Shown here: one piece after another, positions 3 through 31,889 of the stretch
How positions within the stretch are numbered: position 1 is the stretch's first letter
How the letters are laid out: the number at the start of each line of letters is the position of its first letter
Assembly (NCBI GenBank): GCA_036337435.1
Contig: JAYZEG010000082.1
Location: 1-32,804, forward strand
DNA from: Myxococcota bacterium
Lineage (GTDB): Bacteria > Myxococcota_A > Bradymonadia > UBA7976 > UBA1532
DNA length: 32,804 nucleotides
Direction of reading: 5' to 3'
Translations under genes and position numbers: made by a program
Notes under the pieces: generated by a model
Told to the model about the DNA's origin: nothing
The model's input: only the letters and a program-made list of their open reading frames with translations
Databases searched by the model: none

Positions 3-3000
3 CATGTCGTCGACAGTGCTGCCGTTGACAGTGGTGCCGTCGACAGTGGTGCCGTCGACAGTGGGGCCGTCGACAGTGGGGCCGTCGACAGTGGGGCCGT
101 TGACAGTGGGGCCGTCGACCCATGCCAAGCGAATACAAGTCATTGTCATGAGGATGCGGTTTGCAATTTTATGAACGGCTCTGTCGATTGCGTGTGTCGT
201 GGTGGATTCCGGGGCGATGGCCGAGACTGCATCGATATAGACGAGTGCGCCGTCGACAATGGCGGGTGTACGCAGGTCTGCAACAACAACGCCGGCGGCT
301 TTAGCTGCGGGTGCAACGCAGGATACGAACTGAATGCGGACGGATTGACCTGTGATGATCGAGACGAGTGCGCCGTCGACAACGGCGGGTGTGGGCAGGT
401 CTGTACCAACAATGCAGGCGGCTTTAGCTGCGGGTGCAACGCAGGATACGAACTGAATGCGGACGGGTTGACCTGTGATGATCGAGACGAGTGCGCCGTC
501 GACAACGGCGGGTGTGGGCAGGTCTGTACCAACAATGCAGGTGGCTTTAGCTGCGGGTGCAATCAAGGTTGGCGTCTCAACGCGAATGGGCGTGGCTGCG
601 ACCGTATTCATGTTTGCGGTGACGGTATTTTGGGCCCAGATGAGCAATGCGATGAAGGCGTGCGGAATACGGACTTGTGTTCGTATGGGGCTCTAGAGTG
701 CCTTGTGTGCAATCAAGATTGCGTACTTACCCGTGGTGCGACACGCTACTGTGGTGATGGTGTCGTTCAACCCATCGAGGGCGAGGCGTGTGATGGGAAC
801 GACCGATGCACTCCGTTTTGCGAGCCGATCCCGAATCCCGTTTCATGGCTCACCGTCCTCGATGGTATCGCTCATGAAGGCGGGACTGAGTCCGCTACCA
901 TGAGGCTTTCTCTGTCCGAGCCCTTTCCGATGGACCGAACCATTTTTTTTCAGGTCACCGGGAGCGCAACGCAGGGGATTGACTATGTCATCTCGGTTGC
1001 AGGCGTTTTGGTCGACTCAAGTCTGATTGTTCCGGCGGGAGAAACCAGTGTTGATATCGTCGTGATGCCGCTTGCCACGCCGGTCGTTGAGGCAAGTGAA
1101 TTTCTCCGCCTTAAAATTGTCCCAGCCCCGGACCTCAGGGTTGATGAAGCCAGTGGCGTTGCACGTGTCGACATCGTTGAGTATGGACCTTCCCCAGGTG
1201 CCGTTTACTACGTTGGACCAGACGGCGATGACGCTGCAGCGGGCACTGAGGGTGCCCCTTTTGCGAGTCTCTCTCACGCTTTGGCGCAGATGAATCCGGG
1301 GGATACGGTATTCCTGTTTGATGGCATATATACAAATCATGGCTATGTGGATGAGCATGGGCCTGATGGCAATGTCCGAATCAATAACGGAGTATTGGCC
1401 CGGGTCACGCAGGCCGGTGACGCGGACCGCTGGACTACCATCGCTGCGTACCCAGATGGAAATGGTCAAAAGCCTGTTCTGCGCTTCGATGGTGCGGGGG
1501 GGATACAGCTCGGAGCTCATGCGAGCCACATCGTGATCGATGGCTTAGAGATAGAGGGGCCCAATCGAGGCATTTTGCATGATTGGGCCCACGCCCATCG
1601 GTGGAGTAAAGAGGCTTACTATAATGGGCGCGGCATTTTTACATGGGGACCAGTACACCACATCGTGATCCGTAATTGTGACATTCATCACACGCCCAAC
1701 TCGGGCATCCGTTTCAACGGGTCAGATTACATTCTGGTCGAAAATAATGTTGTTTCAAATGCCACCTGGTGGTCCACAAGTGCTGAGAGTGGGATTGTCA
1801 TCGCGACGGCACGCCATATCGATGAACAAGATGTTGTCAAGATTCTGTATTCAGGGAACACGGTCTACAACAATTGGAATTTTATGGAGTTCTGTAGTGG
1901 GCAAGGCGGGCCCGTCGGAAATTGGGAAGGGCGCGATGATGATGTTTACGGCAATTGCGATCATTACACCGGTGGGATTATCGACGGCCAAGGACTCTAT
2001 GTGACCCGAAATCGGGACACGTATTTGCACGGGCGGATGCGCTTTGAGAACAATGTTGCCTTCAATAATGGGTTTGGCGGCGTAGTTTATCACAAGACCA
2101 ATCGCGGTGAGTTGGTCAATAATACTGTCTTTATGAATGGTGCTTACCCAGGCACTGGGAACTATACCGGGCTGACGGTGAATACGGTTGACGACCTTCT
2201 CATCCAGAATAACTTGGTTTGGTCTCGTGACAATAATGACTACGGCATTAAGAATAACGGTGAGGCAAATAACATTAGGACGCAGAATAATTTCGTTGTT
2301 GGCTTGAGCCAGTTTGGTGATGGCGAGCAAAATCGCTTTGTTGCATTCGACGATGCCCCTCGATTACAAGACACCTTCGTAAATGTGTCCGACATTTCCC
2401 AATTGCGTCCGGACCCAGATAGTCGAGTTGGGCCGGCGTCTCCAGTCCAGATCGATGATGTCCTCCAAGCTTTGGAGTTAGACTTTCAGTTAAGCGGTCG
2501 CGCTGCCGAGTTGGTCAATGCCGCGGAATTGCTCTCGGCTCCACCCAGCGATGCTGCTGGTCTCGTGCGACCGCAATGGTTTGCACCAGACATCGGCGCA
2601 TTTGAACGACAATCATGTCGACCGCAGTCGCAGTTTATGACCACGGATGTCACTGTTTTGGGAGACGCGACGCGGGGGGACGAGCATTGGACTCTGACCA
2701 CGAATGACCTGGGACAGGCCGGTGCGGTTTGTGAGCAAGGAGTGAGATCTACCGTGAACCCCGGCCATCTCATGATCGAGTTCGATTTTTTTGCAGGTTG
2801 GAGAAATCTCGGCGGTGATGGATTTTCTTACACGCTTCTAGATTCTGTTGCCGACGTTGACTGCGCCCGATTTCCTCTGCCGCAAGTTGAGATGGATACA
2901 GCACCGGTTGGCCTTACTTTTAAGTTCGATACATATCGAAATATCGATATTGACCCGAACACGAATCGAGATTTTATTTCCGTTCGAGCACCAATGACGG

Positions 3001-3440
3001 GTGAACTCCTCGCTTGGGTCGATGTGCCTAATATTGAGAATAACCGCTGGTATCGCGCGTTGATTGACATCCGTTCAGGCCGAATTCAGATTGCTCTTGA
3101 TGGGGTCATTGTCTTGGATGAATCACTGCCTCCTGATGCCTATTTGTTACCGGAGACCACGCGCAACTTGTTCCAAGCCTGGACGGATTCGGAACGCAAC
3201 GTGCACCGAATCCGAGGAGTTCGAGTCACAGCCTGTGCGACAGATGTTGAGCCTGATAACTGCCCTCAAGTTGAGAATGCAGACCAACTTGATACTGACT
3301 TTGATGGTCTTGGGGATGCATGCGATCCGGATCTCGATAACGATGGCCATGCCAATGACGAGGACAATTGTCCACACCTTCCGAATCCGAACCAGATAGA
3401 CAGAAATGATGACCAGGTGGGTGACCTTTGTGAACCGTAG
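3..3440 (+). CDS. 5'-truncated large modular secreted/surface protein: VDSGA linker, EGF plus 3 Ca-binding EGF repeats, myxobacterial Cys-rich repeats, Calx-beta-like domain, right-handed beta-helix (pectin-lyase fold), ConA/L-lectin-like domain, C-terminal thrombospondin type-3 repeats
   Basis: The frame of ORF 171..3440 stays open back to position 3 (HV-VDSAA-(VDSGA)6[20 protein letters not shown]...), so ATG 171 lies inside an EGF module and the start is outside the window. Motifs: DIDEC/DRDEC...CTN..GGFSCGC; CGDG...[24 protein letters not shown]...[10 protein letters not shown]; Asn-ladder repeats ([25 protein letters not shown]); PDIGAFE; GGDGFSY...FDTY; DNCP..N.DQ.D.D.DG.GDACD. Confidence 0.9.
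9..119 (+). repeat. 15-bp tandem repeat (GTYGACAGTGSKGCC x7 plus partial) encoding VDSGA linker
   Basis: Units start at 9, 24, 39, 54, 69, 84 and 99, with a partial unit at 114; in frame with the downstream CDS; no spacers. Confidence 0.95.
240..602 (+). repeat. 123-bp tandem repeat x3 encoding 41-aa calcium-binding EGF-like modules
   Basis: gacgagtgcgccgtcgacaa at 240, 363 and 486; copies are nearly identical at DNA level, and the third diverges after about 562. Confidence 0.95.
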
Positions 3441-13517: not shown

Positions 13518-14702
13518 ATGCGTTTATGCAGCAGTTGCAAATGGAAGCAGACATCGGACCGGCTGAAACGATGGAGCATCATTGCGTCGGTCCTGATGAT
13601 TCAGCTCTGGCTTTCTAGCTGTCAGTCTGACGATAGCCCCAAAGCACAATCACAATTGCAGAGATATTACGACACTCTCATCGCTGATGTCGCAACTTGG
13701 GGCTACAGCGGGGGCGAATGGACGGAAGACTTTGGTGACGGTGCTGCTTTTGGAGCCATGTATTTCGCTAATGTCGCGGCGACTGATGGTGGGGACCAGG
13801 CCCTTGCCTATGCGACCGAGACCCGTAGCTATAATTTATCGGTTGTTAAGCAGGCCGGGGCTGACCTCGGCTGGGCACTGGAGAATCTCGAAGAAGTGTT
13901 CATGGCGTCCCAAGGTTTGCTTGAATATGCGGGTCTATTCGAGGACGAGGAAGCTGTGCAGGCGTTGGACGTGCTGATCGACAACGTAATGGATCCTGTT
14001 GTGATTGGATTTGGCAACTACGTTGACGCGAGTCTAGGCGATTTTGCTGCCGACCTATACGGTCCCACGTCAATCACTGCGGGCCTCGTCGTGATTTACA
14101 CTCAGTATGCCCTTCGCCTGCAAACCCCTCAACGAACAAAACGAATCGAGCGGGCCGTTGAAATTCTCGACGTCATACATGAGCAGGCTTGGGATGACGA
14201 GGGCAGCCGCTACGTGTTCCGCCCTGGCACCGAACGGCTGTTTCTCTACCCAAACGGAACCATGTTGATCGCGCTCAACCGTGTATATCAGCTGACAGGT
14301 CAAGCTCGTTTTCTGGAGAGAGCAAAAGCGACCTTCAACGGAATTCAGCCGCTCAGGAAGGAAACGGGCTATTACCAAAGTCCCTACAGCCAGGAATATC
14401 AAGGCGCAATGACCGATGAATACGGAACCCTGTCGGCCCAGAACTATCTGACGATCGGGTTGATGCTGATGCATCAAAATACAGGGGATACAGCTTATCT
14501 CACAGAGGCGTTGACGCTCATTAGTTTTGTCCAACAGCATCTGTACGATGCCGCGGAGAGAAAACTGCTGCATCACTGGATAGATGGGCGAGCGGCTCTT
14601 GAGACAGACCCTGACTACTTCTGTAGTGGATGCAATCTCCAAGTCTTGTACATCATCTGGTATCTCCAAAACGAAATTGGCTACGACCTAAACAGCGCTT
14701 GA
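13518..14702 (+). CDS. Putative lipoprotein with (alpha/alpha)6-barrel fold (six-hairpin glycosidase/GH76/AGE-like); start uncertain
   Basis: Hydrophobic stretch ending in LSSC; repeated helix-hairpin motifs LNRVYQLTGQARFLERAK and LMHQNTGDTAYLTEA; acidic and aromatic composition. Confidence 0.6.
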   Translation: MRLCSSCKWKQTSDRLKRWSIIASVLMIQLWLSSCQSDDSPKAQSQLQRYYDTLIADVATWGYSGGEWTEDFGDGAAFGAMYFANVAATDGGDQALAYATETRSYNLSVVKQAGADLGWALENLEEVFMASQGLLEYAGLFEDEEAVQALDVLIDNVMDPVVIGFGNYVDASLGDFAADLYGPTSITAGLVVIYTQYALRLQTPQRTKRIERAVEILDVIHEQAWDDEGSRYVFRPGTERLFLYPNGTMLIALNRVYQLTGQARFLERAKATFNGIQPLRKETGYYQSPYSQEYQGAMTDEYGTLSAQNYLTIGLMLMHQNTGDTAYLTEALTLISFVQQHLYDAAERKLLHHWIDGRAALETDPDYFCSGCNLQVLYIIWYLQNEIGYDLNSA

Positions 14703-17760: not shown

Positions 17761-18873
17761 TCAGGTTTGAGTCGAACGGCTTGGGAGTGGTGTTGCCTCG
17801 TTGACGAAGGCGATGATTTCCTTGGCTCTGTCGAGCGTAGCACCGGAGCCAAGAATCGCATTGGCCGAGTTAATGCAGCGTCGATCGGCGCGGGTCAATT
17901 TTCCATTGAGACAACATGCGACGGTGAGCACGTCGAGCACAGTCCGTTGCTCTTCCTTCGAACATTTCTTTAGCGATTCATGGAAATCTTTTTTGACGAG
18001 TTCGTTCTCGCATAAATCAGTCTCCGCCGTAAATTTTTCTAGAAAAAGAACGACGTTCGGGTGGAATTCACCACTGCTATGAACAGCTTCGCCCAAAGCA
18101 AGAAAACATGTGTACTGCCCGTGTCGAGACATGGATGAAAGGTCTTTTAGAATCTTGGGGTATATAGACTCTACAATTGCTTGCCCTAGGGCTCTGGTTC
18201 TTGTCTCGGCCATGATCCAACGTGTAATAAGCATGTTCCAAAAGGCGAAAACGGGCACGGCAACTAATTCGACAAAGTAGCGAGATGCGGCGCGTCCAAA
18301 AATTCTTTTTAGCAGTGCTTTCAGCAGGAAATTAGTGACCGCAATCTTGGCCTTGTATGCAATGGTTTTCAAAAATACGCGCAGTTTCGATTTACGGCTG
18401 AGTGGATTAATCCCGAACAGTGGTTCGACTGGTTCAGACAATTCGAGAGCCGAGCGAACGAGGATTAAATCCATCGTGCGTTCCTGAGTTTGGCAGTTGA
18501 GTTCACAGCGTTGAGCGATTCGGTTAATGCGCACTGCCGCGTAGAGTCCGTCCCAATATAAATAGGCAATTTCGAGTGCAGTGGCGACCAGAGTGACCGA
18601 GAACACAATCGCCAAATAGGGGAGTTGCTCAGTCAGCGATGGCTCTCCACTGGGCATTAATGGGTCTGCGAAATAGGCAGCTATAGCCCCCGATAAGCCT
18701 GATAACGCACCGGCAATCGCGGCGTTTCGAATCGTCCGGCGTTCGACCTGATTGATTTGGCTGTGGCACGCTCTTAGATCGATAAGGGGTTCGTCGTCGC
18801 AAGCGATCCGCTCATCGCATTTGCGGTACCGCTCCAAGGCCCACTTCTCGAGAATACTGAGGTCTTGCGACAT
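17761..18873 (-). CDS. Conserved hypothetical membrane protein with possible TerB-like C-terminus (resembles the LBF_2804-type family, from memory)
   Basis: 370-aa ORF; hydrophobic helices AAIAGALSG, YLAIVFSVTLVATALEIAYLYW and VAVPVFAFWN; C-terminal VACCLNGKLTRADRR helix motif. Confidence 0.65.
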   Translation of the reverse strand: MSQDLSILEKWALERYRKCDERIACDDEPLIDLRACHSQINQVERRTIRNAAIAGALSGLSGAIAAYFADPLMPSGEPSLTEQLPYLAIVFSVTLVATALEIAYLYWDGLYAAVRINRIAQRCELNCQTQERTMDLILVRSALELSEPVEPLFGINPLSRKSKLRVFLKTIAYKAKIAVTNFLLKALLKRIFGRAASRYFVELVAVPVFAFWNMLITRWIMAETRTRALGQAIVESIYPKILKDLSSMSRHGQYTCFLALGEAVHSSGEFHPNVVLFLEKFTAETDLCENELVKKDFHESLKKCSKEEQRTVLDVLTVACCLNGKLTRADRRCINSANAILGSGATLDRAKEIIAFVNEATPLPSRSTQT

Positions 18874-21340: not shown

Positions 21341-22246
21341 ATGGGGACAACCTTAGACGCATTTAAACAGGCTCGAACGAACCTGGGTTTAGGCGAGCGA
21401 GTCGATGAATCATTTTCAACGATTTATCGACCCGTAGCCGATTGGGTCGCTGCAAGCCACGCGTTGGCCGACGGGTGCGTGACCATCGGCATAAACGGGG
21501 CTCAGGGGTCAGGCAAGTCTACTTTTTGTGCGCTTCTGAAGCCCGTCTTAGAAAAACTACACCAACTCAAAGTGGTTATTTTGTCCATAGATGATGTCTA
21601 CCACACGCGAGCGACGCGCAGTCGACTCAGTCAGGACATTCATCCGCTTTGTCAAATTAGGGGGGTGCCAGGCACTCATGATGTCGCGCTTGCCCTGCAG
21701 ACACTTAACTCGTTGAAGGCCTCCAGTGACTGGTCAAGCATACCCATTCCGCGATTCGACAAGGCATCCGATGATCGAAGGCCTGAACACGAGTGGGATG
21801 TGGCGGACGGCTCCGTCGACGTTGTCCTTTTCGAAGGTTGGTGTGTGGGGTGCCCTCCCATGAAAAATTGGACTGCACCCTATAACGAGAGAGAGGCTCG
21901 TGAAGATCCCAACGGGGTGTGGGCAAAATGGAGTATCAAGAGTCTCGAGACGGACTATAATCCGCTCTTCGAAAAACTCGATGGACTCGTCATGATCAAA
22001 GTGCCGTCCATGGAGACAGTTCGTAACAGTCGATGGCTGCAAGAAAAAACACTTCGTGCAAAGCTGGGCGTGACTCAGGACGTCGATGAACGGCACGTGG
22101 GCCTGATGACGAAGGCGCAAGTCTTCGATTATGTGGCACTTTTTGAAAGGGCAACGGAACACATGTTGCGGAGCTTGCCAAAAACGGCCGATGTGCTTAT
22201 CGACAGGGACGCGCAGTTTCGTTACCGTCTGCGCCGGCTCCCTTGA
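21341..22246 (+). CDS. P-loop kinase, D-glycerate 3-kinase (GLYK)-like
   Basis: GINGAQGSGKST, LSIDDVY, RGVPGTHD, PRFDKASDDR, FEGWCVG and R..QE are GLYK-family signatures. Confidence 0.85.
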   Translation: MGTTLDAFKQARTNLGLGERVDESFSTIYRPVADWVAASHALADGCVTIGINGAQGSGKSTFCALLKPVLEKLHQLKVVILSIDDVYHTRATRSRLSQDIHPLCQIRGVPGTHDVALALQTLNSLKASSDWSSIPIPRFDKASDDRRPEHEWDVADGSVDVVLFEGWCVGCPPMKNWTAPYNEREAREDPNGVWAKWSIKSLETDYNPLFEKLDGLVMIKVPSMETVRNSRWLQEKTLRAKLGVTQDVDERHVGLMTKAQVFDYVALFERATEHMLRSLPKTADVLIDRDAQFRYRLRRLP

Positions 22247-26016: not shown

Positions 26017-29000
26017 CTATAGGCTGCATACATACGACTTTTCTTCATCACAAGCAGCATCGCTCCAATAGGCTTTGTTTTCGCCAAGACTAACGCAGTC
26101 TTGGTCGGCGGGAAGGCCATTGGGGTCAAACCCTGAAAAACTGAGGTTAAGATGGTCCGTTCTCAACCAGTGGCCATCAACCATTCGGTGTCCGATCCAA
26201 GCACCTGCCAGTTCATTTGAACGAACGGTTTCTGCGATCCACTGATTTTCTTCCACGTAGGTGACACTGGCCAGTCGTCCGCCAGCCTCTTCGCAGGCAG
26301 CGTTGGCTTGCTCTTGAGTTCGATGGCTTCCGCAAAATAAGAAATCACGGCTGACAAGGTCTGTTGCTCGGTACCGCTTTGTACCAGCTGGAAATCCAGC
26401 CCGACGCAAGCCCAGGTCCGTGCCCGCGAGATGTAGATGCGATTCCGACTCAAGGTCCAGTGTACTGCCAAACACCCTTGTTCCGAGAGGGAATCCGAGC
26501 CGACTGGCGACGCCGCTGGTTTGCACCTCGATATTTCGGCCATCGGGTGCCGTCAGCATGAGATGACGATCCGCCGTTAGGTTGGCATACACACCCGTAA
26601 AGTCAGAAACCGAGTTAATTAGACTTCGCAAATTATCCGACCCGTCAGCACGCAGCGCAGCGACGATGATTGGCTGTGAAAAGCCGATGCTTGCGAGGGC
26701 TGCCGCATTGCCATGAATTGTAAAGGCGTTGTCAGAGGTCAAAGTGAGTGGCGCACCATATACGCCATTGTAATGGTTGCGGCCTAATCCGGTGATTCGG
26801 CCGGTGGCGATATTTGTATGGCTCAAGGCGATATTTCGACCATCTTGCGCGGTAAGGACAAGGCGGCCCTCAACATCCAAAGACGCAGTCACCCCGGTCT
26901 CGGTGCTTGCGGCATTGATCAAGCTGCGTAAATTATCCGCACCGTCTGCACGCAGTCTCGGAATAATCGTTTCATCCTGAATGCCGATTTTATCGGGGGA
27001 ATTTCCTGATATGATGATGGTCTCGGCACTCTCCAATGATAACGCTCCGCCGTGGGTACGCAGGCCTTGGAACCCGAGCCCGAGACGAGTCGCGTTGCCA
27101 ATAATCCCGAGCTCAATGTTTCGACCATCATTCGCGGTCAAGACCACCCTATGGTCCGCGTCTAAAGCCGCCGTGACACCGGTTTTCTCTGTCACAGAAT
27201 TGATCAAGCTTCTCAGGTTGTCGCTGCCATCTGCTCGGAGGGGGAACGCGAAGGTGTTGTTCGTACCGATCTTCGCAACGGCGTTCCCCTCGAGCCGTAT
27301 GGATTCACTCGATTCGAGGACCAGGCGGCCCCCAACTGAATAGGTTCCGGGGCCTGGGGATAGTCCGAGACGGGTTGCATCTCCGAGCACCGTGATTTCA
27401 ATGTTTCGTCCATCTGCAGCTGTCAGAATCAATCGAGATGCCGGGCTGAGAGACGCGATGACACCCGTTTCATCCGTCAGTGAATTGATCACACTTCGGA
27501 GTGTATCCCGCCCATCAATGCGCAAGGCACTCTTGTAGATTTGCAGTCCGACGAAGCCGAGTTTAGCCATCGTGTTCGTAGGCGACCAAAGACGGATGCG
27601 GTTCGGGGACGTCAGGCTGATTGTGCCGCCGACAACCCGCGTCCCCGGGGTGGCCAATAGTCCAAGTCGAGTTGCAGCACCTTCGATCAATACATTGATA
27701 TTTCGTCCATCGATGGCGGTGAGAACCAAGCGTTGTTGTGCATTGAGTGATGCTTGGACACCGGTCTGAACGACTCGGGCATTGATAGCCTCGCGCAGTG
27801 TGCCTGTCGCATCTGCGTCTTGGACTTCAATATCTCGAATAACAACGCCATTGATATGGAGGGCATTATCATCATTCAGTGTGACTTGAACGAGATTCCC
27901 GGAACCAACGAAATAGCTCGGTTCCGCTCTTGCGGTGACCGTTGTAAAATCACTGGATGCATTGATGGCGGCCGCTTTGGCGATGGCAGAAGACGAACCA
28001 AATCTAATTGAGAGTGGGTCATCAGCAGCGATAGATGCCCGAATATTGACCCCATTTACGAGGAGGTCGCCTCGGTTCAACTCATTGCCCGGCCCCTGTG
28101 GAATATTTGTAATCCCATAGTCTGCTGCAAGGATGCTTGCCCGGCGTTCAACGGCATCTCCATTGTCACCACCTCCGTCGCCAGCGTCGTTGTCGAGAAC
28201 CTCAAATCCGGCAATAATCACGCCATTGATGGATACGTAATTGCTGCTGTCGAGGGCGACCTGGGCGATGTCGCTCACACCCGTCACCTGGCTCTGTTGG
28301 ACCCGTGCGGTGACCCGAGTGTGTTCGCTCGACGAATTAATCGCATTTGCTTTCGCGATCGCGGAGGTTGCAGGCCTGACCGTCGATAAAGGGTCATCAG
28401 CACCGACGGTGGCGCGAATGGGGACGCCGTTTATGACGAGGTCAAAAGCGGCCAGTGCTTCAGCTGCATTGCCCACCGAAATACTGTTGTTTGACTCCAG
28501 CCGCGCGATTCGCATCGCGTCTGCGGGGTCATCGCTTATGGGCCCAGGTCCGGCATCGTTGTCTTGTATTTGAATCCCGGCGATCATCTCTCCGTTGATC
28601 ATCAATAAATTGGTCGAATCGAGTTCAACGGCACTGATGTCGCTGGTTCCATAAAGCTTTGTTGGCATGACCCTAGCCGTGACGCCAGTGAACTCCGTTG
28701 ACGAATTAATGGCGTTCATCTTGGCGATAGCCGATGAGGCTTTATCTCGCGTCGAGGTGGCGTCGTCTGCATCAACCGTCGAGCGAATATCGACCCCATT
28801 GATGATGACATCCTGGTCCATCAATCGTTCCCCGTCGCCTTGCGCGATCGACCGGAAGGGAGATGGTACAAAGAGCGCACGGCGACGCGCATCCTCAGGA
28901 CGTTGGCTGACTGGGCCGGGTCCGCCATCTCGGTCTTCAACGCCAATGCCTGTGAACAAGACGCCATTGATGGTGACATAATGAGTCGAATCAAGAGTAC

Positions 29001-31710
29001 CCGCATTGATCGGGTCTCGATCGTGAATCACTGTCGCGTTGGCCGACGCCGTGACCCCCGTGAAAGGCGTACTGGCATTGATGGCACTGCTTTTGGCAAG
29101 GGCTGATAAGCCGCTATTGGTTGTGGAAAGCTGATCATCTCCTTCGACTGCGGGTCGAATGGCTACGCCATTAATGAAAACGGAATCGGGTCGGATCGGT
29201 GTCTGGGCGACTGCGTCACCCGTCATCTCTGCTCGCCGGATACTGTCCTCCGCTCGATCGCTTTGCGGACCCGCTGCGGCGTCGTCATCGAGTACCTGAA
29301 TTCCAGTGATCAGATTTGCGTTAATGGCGATGTAATTGGTGCTGTCGAGCAACACGTCGAGAATTGGATCGTCTGCAACGACGCGGGTTGGCGCTGGCGT
29401 CGCGCGAACCTGAGTTGACCCGAAAGCATCATTAATGGCGTTCGCTTTCGCGATGGCGGAGCCGGTGGCATTGTTGGTCGAGTAAAAATCGTCGGACTGT
29501 TGACTGGCTCTCACGTCGATTCCATCGATGACGAGGTCTGACTCCACAAGACCTTCCAGCAGCCTTTCATTGCCATTATTTAAAGGAAAGTCATCGGCCC
29601 GCACATGGACGCGTTTTTGGTAGCGTCGTCGTTGGACACAACGATCCGGACCCACAACCCCTTCCGGATGGGCAGGCTCTCGTGTCACGCCTGCCGGTGC
29701 CGTGTAAATACGACTTGGGTTTGTCCGTGCGATTCGGAACCCGATCCCATCATGGAACGCCGGTGCCTGAATTGCCCCCGGATTCGCCATAGACCGAAAA
29801 GCCGCTCGAATGTGCACCCGTGGGGTTTCGTAAGACCCACCGCGGATCACCCTTTGGGTTCCGAATCGGGCACCCACTGGGTTCAAAACGGTCCGACTGG
29901 TGAATGGTGCGTACACGTCCCAAACCCACTCAGATACGTTCCCGAGCATATCCGAGACCCCAAACGCATTCGGCGCGCCGACACTCGCGACCGGGTTTAG
30001 ACACACATCATCGACGCCGCCACACTCACCAGAGTCGCGGCGTGTATGGAAATTAGCGCAGTCGTTTATGTTGGCAAAAGCAGGTCCACCCATTTGGGCT
30101 GCGCCAACAAATAGACAGGTTCGCAGCCTCATATCTTGGTACAAAGCCGTTAAATCATCGCCGCCCACATTCGGATTGCCGACGCCAAGGGTATCTGTTG
30201 ACCCGCTGCGTGCGGCGTATTCCCATTCCGCCTCTGTCGGGAGTCGGTATCCAGCGCAATCATAGGGATGGCCTGACCCTGTGTTCACAGTCACGCTCGA
30301 ACAACTATAATCAGGAAAACCTTCTCGTTCTTCATTGCACTCGTTTAGCTGAAAGCACTCAGGGAGCCCTTCTTGTTGACTGAGGCGATTGGCATAGGCG
30401 AGGGCATTGTAGAAGTTAAGCCCCGCAACGGGGCATTGTTCGCAATCTAACTCGGGCTTTGGGCTGTAATTTCCTGGCCCGTACATGTCGTCCCACTGTG
30501 CTTTTGTGACTTCAGTTGCTTGTAAAAAGAACCCGTGGGTCAAGTAGACAGCGTGCCGGTTTTCGTCCGTGTGGCGTCCAGGCTCATTCGCTGGTGAACC
30601 AATGAAGAATGGCACCAGCTGCTCTTCATCATTTAGGGGTGGCGTGATTGACACAAAGCCATCAATGGGTGCGATTGGCCCGCATTGACTCGGCTCACCG
30701 ATACAGCCTCGATCTGGATCGAACTGACAGTTTGTGCACCCATCACCATCGATGTCATTGCCGTCGTCACACGCTTCGTCGGCGTCATCCAGTTGACCGT
30801 TACCGCAACGGGTTCCAATGGGACCATTTGCGCCCTGCTGGCCGACCAGAACGATCGCAGGTCCGTGCGGGCAAGTTAGCGTAAACGTGCCATCATCATT
30901 GGGATCGATTCGACAGCCAGCACCATTGAGACCATCGGCACCGTCTTGACCATCGGCACCGTCTTGACCATCGGCTCCAGGCTGTCCATCGCGCCCTTGT
31001 TGAATGGTCACAGGTGGGCTGCCCGGACAATTAATGGTCACCGATTGATCTGCGTTGGAAACCACAATGCATCCTGGGCCATTCTCGCCGTTACTAATCA
31101 CGACAGGCTCGCTGTCCGGACAATTTAGGGTTGCCACGCCGTTGTCATCGATCTCGATTCGGCAAGGCTCGCCAGCCTCTCCACTCGGCCCCCTTTCTCC
31201 TTGCATGCCGGGTGCGCCATCTATGCCGGCCGGTCCTTCGGGACCCGGCTCTCCTTGAGACCCTTGTTCGCCTTGAGGACCCGCCTCACCCCGAGACCCC
31301 GTGTCTCCTTGGGGCCCTTGTGGTCCCTCTTCACCCTGTGGGCCTGGCTCACCCTGCGGACCTTGCTCACCTTGCGGGCCTTGCTCACCCTGCGGGCCTT
31401 GTTGGCCAGGCAAGCCCTGCTCGCCTCGCGGTCCTCGCTCGCCTGCTTCGCCATCTCGTCCGTTACAGACAACGTCTTGGCGGTCCACTTCGTCGGCATC
31501 GAGCATGCCATCTCCGTTTGTATCGACGCCAACATCGAGAACGACGCCACCGTTGGGGCATTCGTCCAATGTTGCCGGTCTCGCTTCCTGAGCCAGTGCG
31601 ACGACATTGAGCGGGACATCCGCATCGGGTGCTTGGTCTGGACCATCTGTTTGCGTTTCACATCCAAGACTAGCGAGCAGAAGTATGGCGAGGCTGTAGC
31701 GAAGCATCAT
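26017..31710 (-). CDS. Giant surface lipoprotein: collagen-like stalk, Cys-rich repeats, FGE-sulfatase-fold domain, nested flagellin IN-motif repeats, C-type lectin domain
   Basis: ATG 31710 after GGGGGA; lipobox SLGC; CPNGG...[12 protein letters not shown] module; GXY tracts; CGNG...EACDDGN; FGE fold 29722-30657 ([33 protein letters not shown]); SAIAK..AIN...T.V.A x5 then LR..IN...TGV.A.L...LTA.DGRNI x5; CTLD (A..AC...GGRLASV...EN.WI...WIG...DC...WSD..C...YVC). Confidence 0.9.
26392..27807 (-). repeat. Five 'C-half' flagellin-like repeats (~85 aa each)
   Basis: Copies at 27553-27807, 27265-27516, 26983-27231, 26680-26946 and 26392-26646; consensus DG.D.LRSLIN.....TGV.A.L....RL.LTA.DGRNI......A.RLG......GG.L.L.S...I.I.G.....IG. 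Confidence 0.9.
27808..29538 (-). repeat. Five 'N-half' flagellin-like repeats (~87 aa plus linkers)
   Basis: Copies at 29278-29538, 28924-29187, 28552-28812, 28183-28443 and 27808-28068; consensus DL.INGV.IR.....DD..S......SAIAK..AIN.S..FT.VTA...LDS.N...ING..I.G..V.D.DA. Confidence 0.9.
30916..31461 (-). repeat. Collagen-like Gly-X-Y tracts (33 triplets at 31165-31461; 9 triplets at 30916-30996)
   Basis: Uninterrupted [12 protein letters not shown]...GEP; second tract [27 protein letters not shown] includes an 18-bp DNA tandem repeat. Confidence 0.95.
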
Positions 31711-31889
31711 GTTCCCCCGGATTAAGGTTCGATGGCGTAGACAATAGGACGATGTCCCCGTTGGAGCCAAGGCGTTTAATCCGTGTCCAAGGAATTTCAT
31801 GAGTTCAGCGAGAGTGGACAGTCATTTCAGATGGGAAAAGCAGCGTTGGAACGCATTGAAAACACCGCTTTTTCAGGTGCTTTCAGTCG

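Follow-up and report, generated by a model that had tools for sequence, protein, structure and literature searches.

A gene on the minus strand of a 32,804-nucleotide contig from a Myxococcota bacterium (JAYZEG010000082.1 of assembly GCA_036337435.1; this whole contig is called the window here) encodes a probable mosaic surface protein whose predicted structural principle is unusual. The protein begins with a lipobox signal and continues with a DUF7151 domain, collagen triplets (33+9+4), a Cys-rich repeat, a domain of the FGE fold, five A repeats, five B repeats and a C-type lectin domain. The A and B repeats are outer-domain modules of flagellins, and the helical D0/D1 domains of flagellins are absent. 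Our preferred explanation, to which we give a probability of about 0.55, is a surface lipoprotein with a nested rod, built from the outer cassette of the flagellins of its own lineage and serving in binding or adhesion.

In this explanation, the protein would be exported by Sec as a lipoprotein and is probably displayed on the cell surface. The outer cassette of the lineage's own flagellins would have been inserted into itself recursively. The chain would climb through A1-A5, turn at the contiguous A5.B1 and return through B1-B5, each A(i) completing domains with B(6-i). The outcome would be a stiff rod of about ten immunoglobulin (Ig)-like domains with both chain ends at its base, where two lectin-fold domains (FGE fold and C-type lectin) would stand side by side. 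A collagen helix (33 triplets) would lift the assembly off the membrane in the studied genome, and a disordered spacer would be found there in the orthologs. The job would be ligand or glycan binding (adhesion) by a long surface fibre that does not polymerise.

Repeats from flagellin outer domains

The open reading frame (ORF) occupies 26017..31800 and has 1927 amino acids counted from its first ATG. The likely start is M31 at 31710, where the first-pass annotation, made from the letters alone, had also placed it; GGGGGAA precedes this codon. The gene is then 26017..31710 (minus strand, from M31 to the stop, with the frame open from 31800) and the product has 1897 amino acids. Every element of what that annotation had observed (ORF, motifs, triplet counts and domains) was confirmed.

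The motifs it had quoted, SAIAK..AIN...TGV and IN...TGV.A.L...L.LTA.DGRNI, are real and far beyond chance. They belong to five A repeats of about 123 amino acids each (SAIAK..AIN...TGV, residues ~754-1345) and five B repeats of about 97 amino acids each (LR.LIN...TGV.A.L...L.LTA.DGRNI, residues ~1327-1809). The A repeats, with Cys721 and a first base strand (residues 724-735) before them, make up the putative ascending arm of the rod (27811..29640, minus strand). The B repeats, followed by a last base strand and Cys1823, make up the putative descending arm (26332..27810, minus strand). Flagellin_IN of Pfam matched in five stretches (E 5.6e-26).

The same genome has seven ordinary flagellin genes of 471-509 amino acids, plus FlgL- and FliD-like genes, and these were the only matches when the repeat region was compared by BLASTP with all ORFs of the genome. 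The A repeats aligned to residues ~185-280 of the genome's own flagellins and the B repeats to residues ~278-361. A5+B1 was colinear with residues 185-364 (45% identity over 183 amino acids, E 2.6e-28), and the best single repeat had 59.5% identity over 84 amino acids. These ranges, together with the colinearity of A5-B1, indicate that one A plus one B is a complete flagellin outer-domain cassette (~185-365). The central contiguous cassette A5.B1 (residues 1218-1427, 27520..28149, minus strand) is such a complete unit and would form the tip of the hairpin.

The first-pass annotation had proposed that the best matches of one module should be the central domains of flagellins, and not phage sheath or S-layer domains. 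Flagellins and FliD indeed came first in sequence, profile and fold searches, and neither phage sheath nor S-layer proteins did. By sequence, A5.B1 matched only flagellins in the PDB (C. jejuni FlaA 6x80, E 8.4e-9, plus 9yh1 and 9ygu). Flagellin models of NCBIfam matched by their central parts only; for example, PRK12806 matched at positions 198-374 of 475 with E 3.1e-46 and 158 bits, against a cut-off of 531. Neither Flagellin_N (PF00669) nor Flagellin_C (PF00700) matched the protein even at E<=1, in agreement with the claim that D0/D1 are absent. PF00669 found nine places elsewhere in the same genome. An N-terminal flagellin profile of our own found nothing in the ortholog P0003, the sole member of the nested family among the rows counted.

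An AlphaFold model of A4-A5-B1-B2 (32-row alignment) had a predicted local distance difference test score (pLDDT) of 88.4 and a predicted template modelling score (pTM) of 0.79. Its top Foldseek matches were H. pylori FlaB and FlaA, C. jejuni FlaA and P. aeruginosa FliC D2/D3, with H. pylori FliD and the Sphingomonas cell-surface flagellin also among them. VIA-align placed model residues 104-313 on residues 170-379 of H. pylori FlaA (Z 15.3, root-mean-square deviation 3.7, 185 aligned), and gave Z 12.5 for C. jejuni FlaA and Z 11.2 for P. aeruginosa FliC. A cyanophage sheath protein was found at Z 7.4 with one subdomain only. The A.B cassette is two Ig-like domains with the fold of flagellin outer domains.

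For the origin of the cassette, the first-pass annotation had suggested a comparison with the genome's own fliC. By BLASTP and in a tree, the modules were closest to the flagellins of their own genome. When 1.84 billion representatives were searched with A5.B1, only 607 matched at E<=0.001, nine of them at E<=1e-30. The cassette tree had 105 rows: the 35 cassettes of non-flagellar proteins and of the own genome (the latter with eight cassettes, including the FlgL-like one) were all included, together with the best-scoring 70 of 299 flagellin cassettes. Ten junction cassettes of the lipoprotein family described below grouped with three of the eight own-genome cassettes and three other flagellins, a group of 16 rows with a value of 92 in the Shimodaira-Hasegawa-like approximate likelihood ratio test (SH-aLRT), under the starred level of 95. 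The remaining own flagellins were elsewhere in the tree. The grouping with three own flagellins points, with moderate support, to recruitment of the cassette from one flagellin paralog line within the lineage. In this genome (G000), five of the seven flagellin paralogs are clustered on one contig (C28:39883-53585), and the others are on C30 and C62.

A predicted nested hairpin

The order A1-A5 followed by B1-B5 appears to be a nested hairpin, the predicted pairs being A5/B1, A4/B2, A3/B3, A2/B4 and A1/B5. The first-pass annotation did not see this hairpin; judging from the models, the A and B halves appear not to be beads on a string. Nested pairing would put both rod ends at the base and make the FGE-fold and lectin domains neighbors.

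In the four-unit model, the fold domains are out of step with the sequence repeats. A domain like FliD D2/D3 crosses the A5/B1 border (model residues 179-279). The second Ig-like domain is split around this tip domain, with strands from the A4-A5 linker (RRASIL, 1219-1224) and the B1-B2 linker (QIYK, 1420-1423). Because strands from both linkers are in one domain, the entry and exit of the cassette are adjacent, as in flagellin.

Five single-domain VIA-align alignments with ends hundreds of residues apart were picked, and all five fell on predicted partners. One was among the 50 rows shown for the four-unit model (54..377, A4/B2) and four were among the 50 rows shown for the whole-rod model (353..778, A4/B2; 239..832, A3/B3; 122..974 and 178..939, A2/B4). 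Such alignments have low Z (2-7) and are informative only on the spatial closeness of the segments in the model.

When A1 (718-856) and B5 (1706-1825), which are about 850 residues apart, were predicted as split chains, the interaction prediction score from aligned errors (ipSAE) was 0.83, 0.84 and 0.83, compared with 0.00 for the best of three controls; since the unit resembles solved flagellins, this score shows that an A half completes a B half and not that A1 prefers B5. Of 157 solved complexes, 116 came up to the ipSAE mark of this test, as did 2 of 215 mismatched pairs. The partners had pLDDT of at least 79, at least 90% of the contacts were shared between runs, and the interface included 719-736 and 1810-1824.

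Sequence patterns in the family bear on the same point. The numbers of A and B repeats are equal in five of the seven apparently complete members, with 5/5 in the studied protein (P0001) and 4/4 in each of P0003, the G003 ortholog, P0004 and P0005. Among 268 proteins fetched, the order A^nB^n with n>=3 was found only in the lipoprotein family, while flagellins had AB, ABA or ABAB. P0001 has no cysteine between 722 and 1822; Cys721 comes before the first strand and Cys1823 after the last. With ten cysteines in the FGE fold and five in the lectin domain, Cys721 and Cys1823 are each the odd one out. Cysteines flank each rod end in P0003 and G003 too, and a Cys721-Cys1823 disulfide possibly staples the rod base. 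The rod-internal cysteines of the orthologs are at two fixed motif positions (ING...C in A and TI.C.VR.DG before B) and in matched numbers, in units that are predicted partners: A3 and B2 in P0003, and A2, A3 and B2, B3 in P0006 and G003. Unit-by-unit identity between P0001 and its relatives was too flat (~40-60% throughout) and gave no positional orthology or mirrored duplication history. Taken with these independent sequence patterns, the models suggest a hairpin.

Other domains, family and locus

The first-pass annotation had named a lipoprotein signal, which is present and is conserved in two orthologs (P0003 with ...LLGC and then E, P0006 with ...FMGC and then E). The signal peptide and lipobox (LASLG before Cys47; 31660..31710) were judged by eye against a PROSITE-type pattern, and the protein is predicted to be lipidated. 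This and all following features of the gene are on the minus strand. The acidic DUF7151 domain (residues 79-112, 31465..31566; Pfam, E 7.8e-10) looks like a Ca-binding domain and lies between Cys81 and Cys112. It is followed by 33 G-X-Y triplets (residues 114-212, 31165..31461; Pfam Collagen, E 1.2e-18) and by a region (30808..31164) with three small Cys-bracketed modules (C213-C227, C244-C258 and C296-C310) and collagen runs of 9 (residues 269-295) and 4 triplets (residues 320-331). The counts of 33 and 9 are as first reported; the run of 4 was found in addition. A Cys-rich acidic repeat (residues 330-373, 30682..30813; DUF4215, marginal in Pfam, and TIGR02232 myxo_disulf_rpt in NCBIfam) precedes the FGE fold.

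The small modules (residues 213-331) have the form C-x13-C followed by about 10 residues, punctuate the collagen runs and had no family match. Their role may be to fix the triple-helix register or to form cross-links in it.

The appendage had been called trimeric on the strength of the collagen run. The 33-triplet helix probably does make this assembly trimeric, judging from its sequence. The run is missing from P0003, P0006 and the G003 copy, where a disordered or low-complexity spacer is found instead; the collagen stalk is a feature of this gene copy, and trimerisation is not a conserved feature of the family. LPXTG is absent, and the C-terminus is the lectin domain. Models of the collagen adhesins Scl and Lcl in NCBIfam stayed below their cut-offs (SclB 73 bits against 325, SclA 63 against 400, Lcl 54 against 500).

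The collagen, FGE-fold and C-type lectin parts that had been recognized by eye are all present in Pfam. The FGE-sulfatase-fold domain (residues 400-692, 29725..30603) matched PF03781 with E 2.6e-29 over profile positions 15-255 of 255. In an alignment to human FGE (2aft), it has no Cys at either catalytic site (query ...IRAAFRS; human GGSYM[C/S]HRSYC), the aligned human positions being what we take to be the catalytic pair. Among solved structures, its best relative is TvpA, a surface lipoprotein of T. denticola (2y3c, E 4.7e-18). NCBIfam models of GldK (51 bits against a cut-off of 350) and GldJ (33 against 458) matched weakly and far below these levels.

The match to TvpA prompted a reading as a diversity-generating retroelement, which was dropped for lack of a template repeat or a reverse transcriptase. 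The last 333 nucleotides of the FGE-fold region had no match elsewhere in the genome (blastn word 7, E<=0.01; genome 87% complete), and no reverse transcriptase was among the 19 ORFs of the window.

The C-type lectin domain (residues 1823-1927, 26020..26334) carries DPN and WSD. Lectin_C matched with E 1.4e-11 (residues 1827-1926). The fold of a C-type lectin-like domain (CTLD) was recovered with 71 solved CTLD chains at E<=0.01, including the mannose receptor at 1e-11 and SP-D and MBP-A near 1e-6. Its cysteines are 1836, 1902, 1917 and 1925, plus the extra Cys1823.

For the family, residues 730-1820 were searched against 5.8 billion clustered proteins with candidate lengths of 1059-3373, giving 144 matches, 120 of which were listed. 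Five among these 120 (P0002-P0006, 41-44% identical) lack both Flagellin_N and Flagellin_C in a precomputed Pfam column and belong to the lipoprotein family. The other listed matches are giant flagellins; both domains are given for nearly all of them, only one for a few. A search of representatives added the fragments or variants P0122, P0123, P0125, P0126, P0127 and P0130. P0003 (1452 amino acids) has a lipobox, a low-complexity spacer, the FGE fold, four A, four B and Lectin_C. P0006, labeled by NCBI 'MAG: SUMF1/EgtB/PvdO family nonheme iron enzyme, partial [Myxococcota bacterium]' (MAG, metagenome-assembled genome), is alike as far as its sequence extends; P0006 and P0122 are incomplete. 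The FGE fold and the lectin are both missing from a subfamily (P0002, P0004, P0005 and P0123) whose members combine short collagen with DUF7151 and A/B repeats.

In a set of 40 related genomes, an ortholog is present only in G003 of the same genus; it has the FGE fold, four A, four B and the lectin (2 of 41 genomes with our own). A 261-amino-acid query across the junction from FGE to A2 found only the own genome among 401 genomes of the phylum at E<=1e-25, a draw to which G003 did not belong. A search for related loci with the single protein found only a collagen match in an unrelated MAG. Comparison of the orthologs gives a conserved core of lipobox, spacer, FGE fold, A^nB^n and lectin. The family is rare, a handful of metagenome clusters.

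A second family without Flagellin_N and Flagellin_C consists of the metagenome proteins P0124, P0132, P0134 and P0141, to which P0162 and P0219 may belong. The N-termini of its members resemble lipobox signals and are followed by a spacer rich in Asp, Ala and Pro, by two to four A.B cassettes in tandem (order ABAB, not nested) and by a short C-terminal segment that is conserved and ends in Cys. It seems that lipoproteins acquired flagellin outer cassettes on more than one occasion or in different arrangements. P0137 (4566 amino acids, open at both ends) has at least ten flagellin-cassette stretches, and no N or C domains were found in it. P0145 (818 amino acids) has the order AABB in a different non-flagellin context and is possibly a two-level nested form. 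In P0007/P0128 (2254-2256 amino acids), Flagellin_N is present together with two A.B cassettes that are separated by about 1700 residues. Three genomes of the same order (G025, G026 and G027) have open frames of 1300-2300 amino acids that contain the cassette. The lineage appears rich in giant flagellins.

A chimeric assembly had been named as what could undo the first-pass annotation. Because the architecture recurs in independent assemblies (P0003, P0006, the G003 copy and P0122), the gene is not a chimera. The longest exact DNA repeat within it is 18 nucleotides, in the collagen part, and the repeats are divergent at the DNA level. Parts of the gene are contained in 20 sequencing runs from 13 studies, seawater or marine where labeled. 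Contigs from four runs of four studies (seawater or marine) match the gene at 90-100% without indels or joints, and the junction from FGE fold to rod is bridged by contig pieces at 29534-29829 (X2) and 29612-29981 (X4). These contigs are short (46-540 nucleotides), leave part of the gene uncovered and none spans it, so that they neither confirm nor contradict the number of 5+5 repeats. The 24 runs listed included no RNA run with the gene. Scans for promoters and terminators on either side of the gene did no better than shuffles.

The host assembly has 4.38 Mb in 95 contigs and is 87% complete. A Pfam scan of the 19 ORFs of the window found no flagellar genes near the gene; downstream on the same strand are a Na/solute symporter and an alpha-amylase-family protein. 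An ORF at 3-3440 (plus strand), open at its 5′ end, is another eukaryote-like extracellular mosaic protein on this contig, with calcium-binding EGF, cEGF and FXa-inhibition repeats, DUF4215, a right-handed beta-helix and a thrombospondin type 3 repeat. Three ORFs of 301-394 amino acids had no Pfam match at E<=0.001: 13518-14702 (plus), 17761-18873 (minus) and 21341-22246 (plus).

Alternative readings and known systems

Several observations weigh against the nested-rod explanation. The nesting was drawn from alignment ranges, scores and sequence patterns, not from coordinates or a contact map. Predictors know the hairpin topology of flagellins and may, in silico, pair any A with any B. The whole-rod model had a pLDDT of 73.1 and a pTM of 0.49, with A1 and the end of B5 below pLDDT 50; this disorder is at least partly due to the construct, which began at residue 745, without the first base strand (724-735), and to an alignment that was thin at both ends. 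P0002 (5/4) and P0123 (4/3) have different numbers of A and B repeats, possibly through assembly error (near-identical repeats in contigs of 3.5-4.3 kb). Parallel pairing would explain the cysteines of P0006 and G003 just as well, so that only P0003 discriminates, and the DUF7151-type subfamily (P0002, P0004, P0005) lacks the base Cys pair at its C-terminal end. As for function, the FGE fold is without catalytic cysteines. Canonical CTLD sugar-binding motifs are EPN or QPD plus WND; the DPN and WSD of the lectin domain align at the places of the Ca/sugar motifs and are not canonical. The symporter and amylase-family neighbors are unrelated and give no functional clue. Two of the three other genomes of the genus (G001, 100% complete, and G002) lack the gene, though both have flagellins.

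If the repeats were ten independently folding beads, the FGE fold and the lectin would be at opposite ends of a flexible chain of about 1100 residues. Such a chain would suit the distant likeness of A and B, each with a Flagellin_IN-type helix plus strand, as well as the unequal counts in P0002 and P0123, the low confidence of the whole-rod model for A1 and B5, and the existence of tandem ABAB flagellins. We consider it unlikely: the fold domains do not match the sequence repeats, with the tip domain across the A5/B1 border and the second domain split around it; the long-range single-domain alignments are on nested partners only; A1/B5 pairing scored 0.83 against 0.00; cysteines are paired in the orthologs; and the four-unit model reached a pTM of 0.79. 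That the gene is an assembly chimera or dead is extremely improbable. The source is a MAG in 95 contigs at 87% completeness, and an RNA run is missing among the 24, but the frame is open for 1927 codons, the same architecture is found in at least four other independent assemblies, the repeats diverge at the DNA level, and contigs of other runs cross the junction from FGE to rod without joints or indels.

The likeliest role of the protein would be that of a lectin or adhesin fibre at the cell surface. The first-pass annotation had proposed an adhesin, prey capture, binding to flagella or a phage decoy. Of these, flagellum binding and the decoy are possible minor readings. The rod might act on the flagellum, its lateral outer-domain contacts tethering, bundling or parking own or kin flagella. 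The cassettes are closest to three own flagellin paralogs, and outer-domain contacts in filaments are reported in PMC8931119 and PMC10256154, but no flagellar genes are nearby, identity to the own flagellins is only 45-59%, and G001 and G002 have flagellins without the gene, so we regard this role as rather improbable. A decoy, whose non-motile flagellin-like surface soaks up flagellotropic phages or other binders of flagellin outer domains, seems somewhat less probable still. It would account for a flagellin-derived surface on a long stalk and for a patchy presence in the genus, as for many defence or accessory genes; divergence from real flagellins would weaken the mimicry, the conserved FGE-fold and lectin domains would be unexplained, and no defence genes were among the neighbors in a scan by Pfam. 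An enzyme on a stalk, with the FGE-fold domain as a working oxidase or sulfoxide-synthase-type catalyst and the rest as scaffold, is very unlikely. The strong FGE-sulfatase match and weak NCBIfam matches to EgtB, SenA and PvdO would speak for it, but both FGE catalytic cysteines are missing, the NCBIfam scores are far under their cut-offs, the best solved relative, TvpA, is a binding protein, and Pfam found no DinB-type partner domain.

A bolder version of the nested-rod explanation, which we hold only tentatively and think rather doubtful, is that this protein is the first recognized exit of flagellin outer domains from the flagellum: a cassette specific to the lineage's flagellins would have been exapted for a lipoprotein exported by Sec and inserted into itself four times, giving a ten-domain 'Russian doll' rod that folds like a zipper. 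If so, nine of the ten domains would be built from segments up to ~1000 residues apart. With the B arm emerging later than the A arm, folding could then proceed only from tip to base; such zipper-like, vectorial folding might assist in drawing the protein out of the cell. The capacity of outer domains for contact with filaments of the same cell may also be preserved in the rod.

The usual view of flagellin outer domains is that of a sink for foreign domains; here the reverse is seen, a portable module reused outside the filament. A real hairpin would be an extreme natural case of recursive domain insertion and a design for a stiff rod with meeting ends, of interest for display scaffolds and for the folding of discontinuous domains after secretion. 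The protein adds a 'collectin-like' surface fibre of collagen and lectin to a marine lineage that keeps seven flagellin genes. For annotation, matches to Flagellin_IN or to part of a flagellin model do not imply a flagellin, and the nearest named homolog is annotated only as a SUMF1/EgtB/PvdO-family enzyme. In a literature search that did not extend to subscription journals and InterPro architecture tables, neither such an architecture nor any non-flagellar protein with flagellin outer domains was found described.

Among known systems, the closest in fold are flagellins with two Ig domains (H. pylori FlaA/FlaB 9ygu/9yh1, C. jejuni FlaA 6x80 and P. aeruginosa FliC 8sug/8erm), which have the same A.B fold (Z 11-15). 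Identity of the A.B cassette is 18-29% to solved flagellins and 45-59% to the genome's own. The hairpin logic, with entry and exit side by side, is also shared. Unlike flagellins, the protein has no D0/D1 helices and so no means of filament polymerisation or of flagellin-type recognition by the flagellar export apparatus; its signal is of the Sec/lipoprotein kind, from which the export route is predicted; and the cassette would be nested five deep, where flagellins have it once or in tandem. The cell-surface flagellin p5 of Sphingomonas sp. A1 (2zbi; structural match Z 8.6-8.9) has a Flagellin_IN-bearing beta-domain that, according to PMC9751261, binds alginate at the cell surface. It thus resembles the proposed use in surface binding and not in swimming, but p5 is described there as a complete flagellin with N- and C-terminal helical domains.

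Outer regions of flagellins evolve by insertion and by duplication-with-insertion: flagellinolysins are flagellins that gained outer domains (PMC5595980), and in G. thiophilus flagellin D5 is inserted into D4, a precedent for duplication-with-insertion (PMC11532411). Compared with these cases, the proposed flow is out of flagellin into a lipoprotein, with self-insertion four times. A C-type lectin and flagellin outer domains are also in one chain in the giant flagellin P0037 (1168 amino acids, with Flagellin_N and Flagellin_C), whose lectin domain is inside the outer region (residues 693-799); lectin and flagellin outer domains therefore meet in real flagellins, too.

FGE-fold lipoproteins such as T. 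denticola TvpA, PorK/GldK and GldJ likewise combine a lipoprotein with a non-catalytic domain of FGE/C-type-lectin fold. Unlike TvpA, our protein is not accompanied by a template/variable repeat pair anywhere in the genome or by a reverse transcriptase in the window ORFs, and its scores are far under the family cut-offs of PorK/GldK and GldJ. In Scl1/Scl2, Lcl and the animal collectins (MBP, SP-D), as here, a G-X-Y stalk carries globular binding domains, and collectins have collagen and a C-terminal C-type lectin in one chain. The protein differs from these collagen proteins in its lipobox anchor, in place of LPXTG or secretion, in the ~1500 residues (FGE fold and rod) between stalk and lectin, in having no coiled-coil neck, and in having orthologs without collagen.

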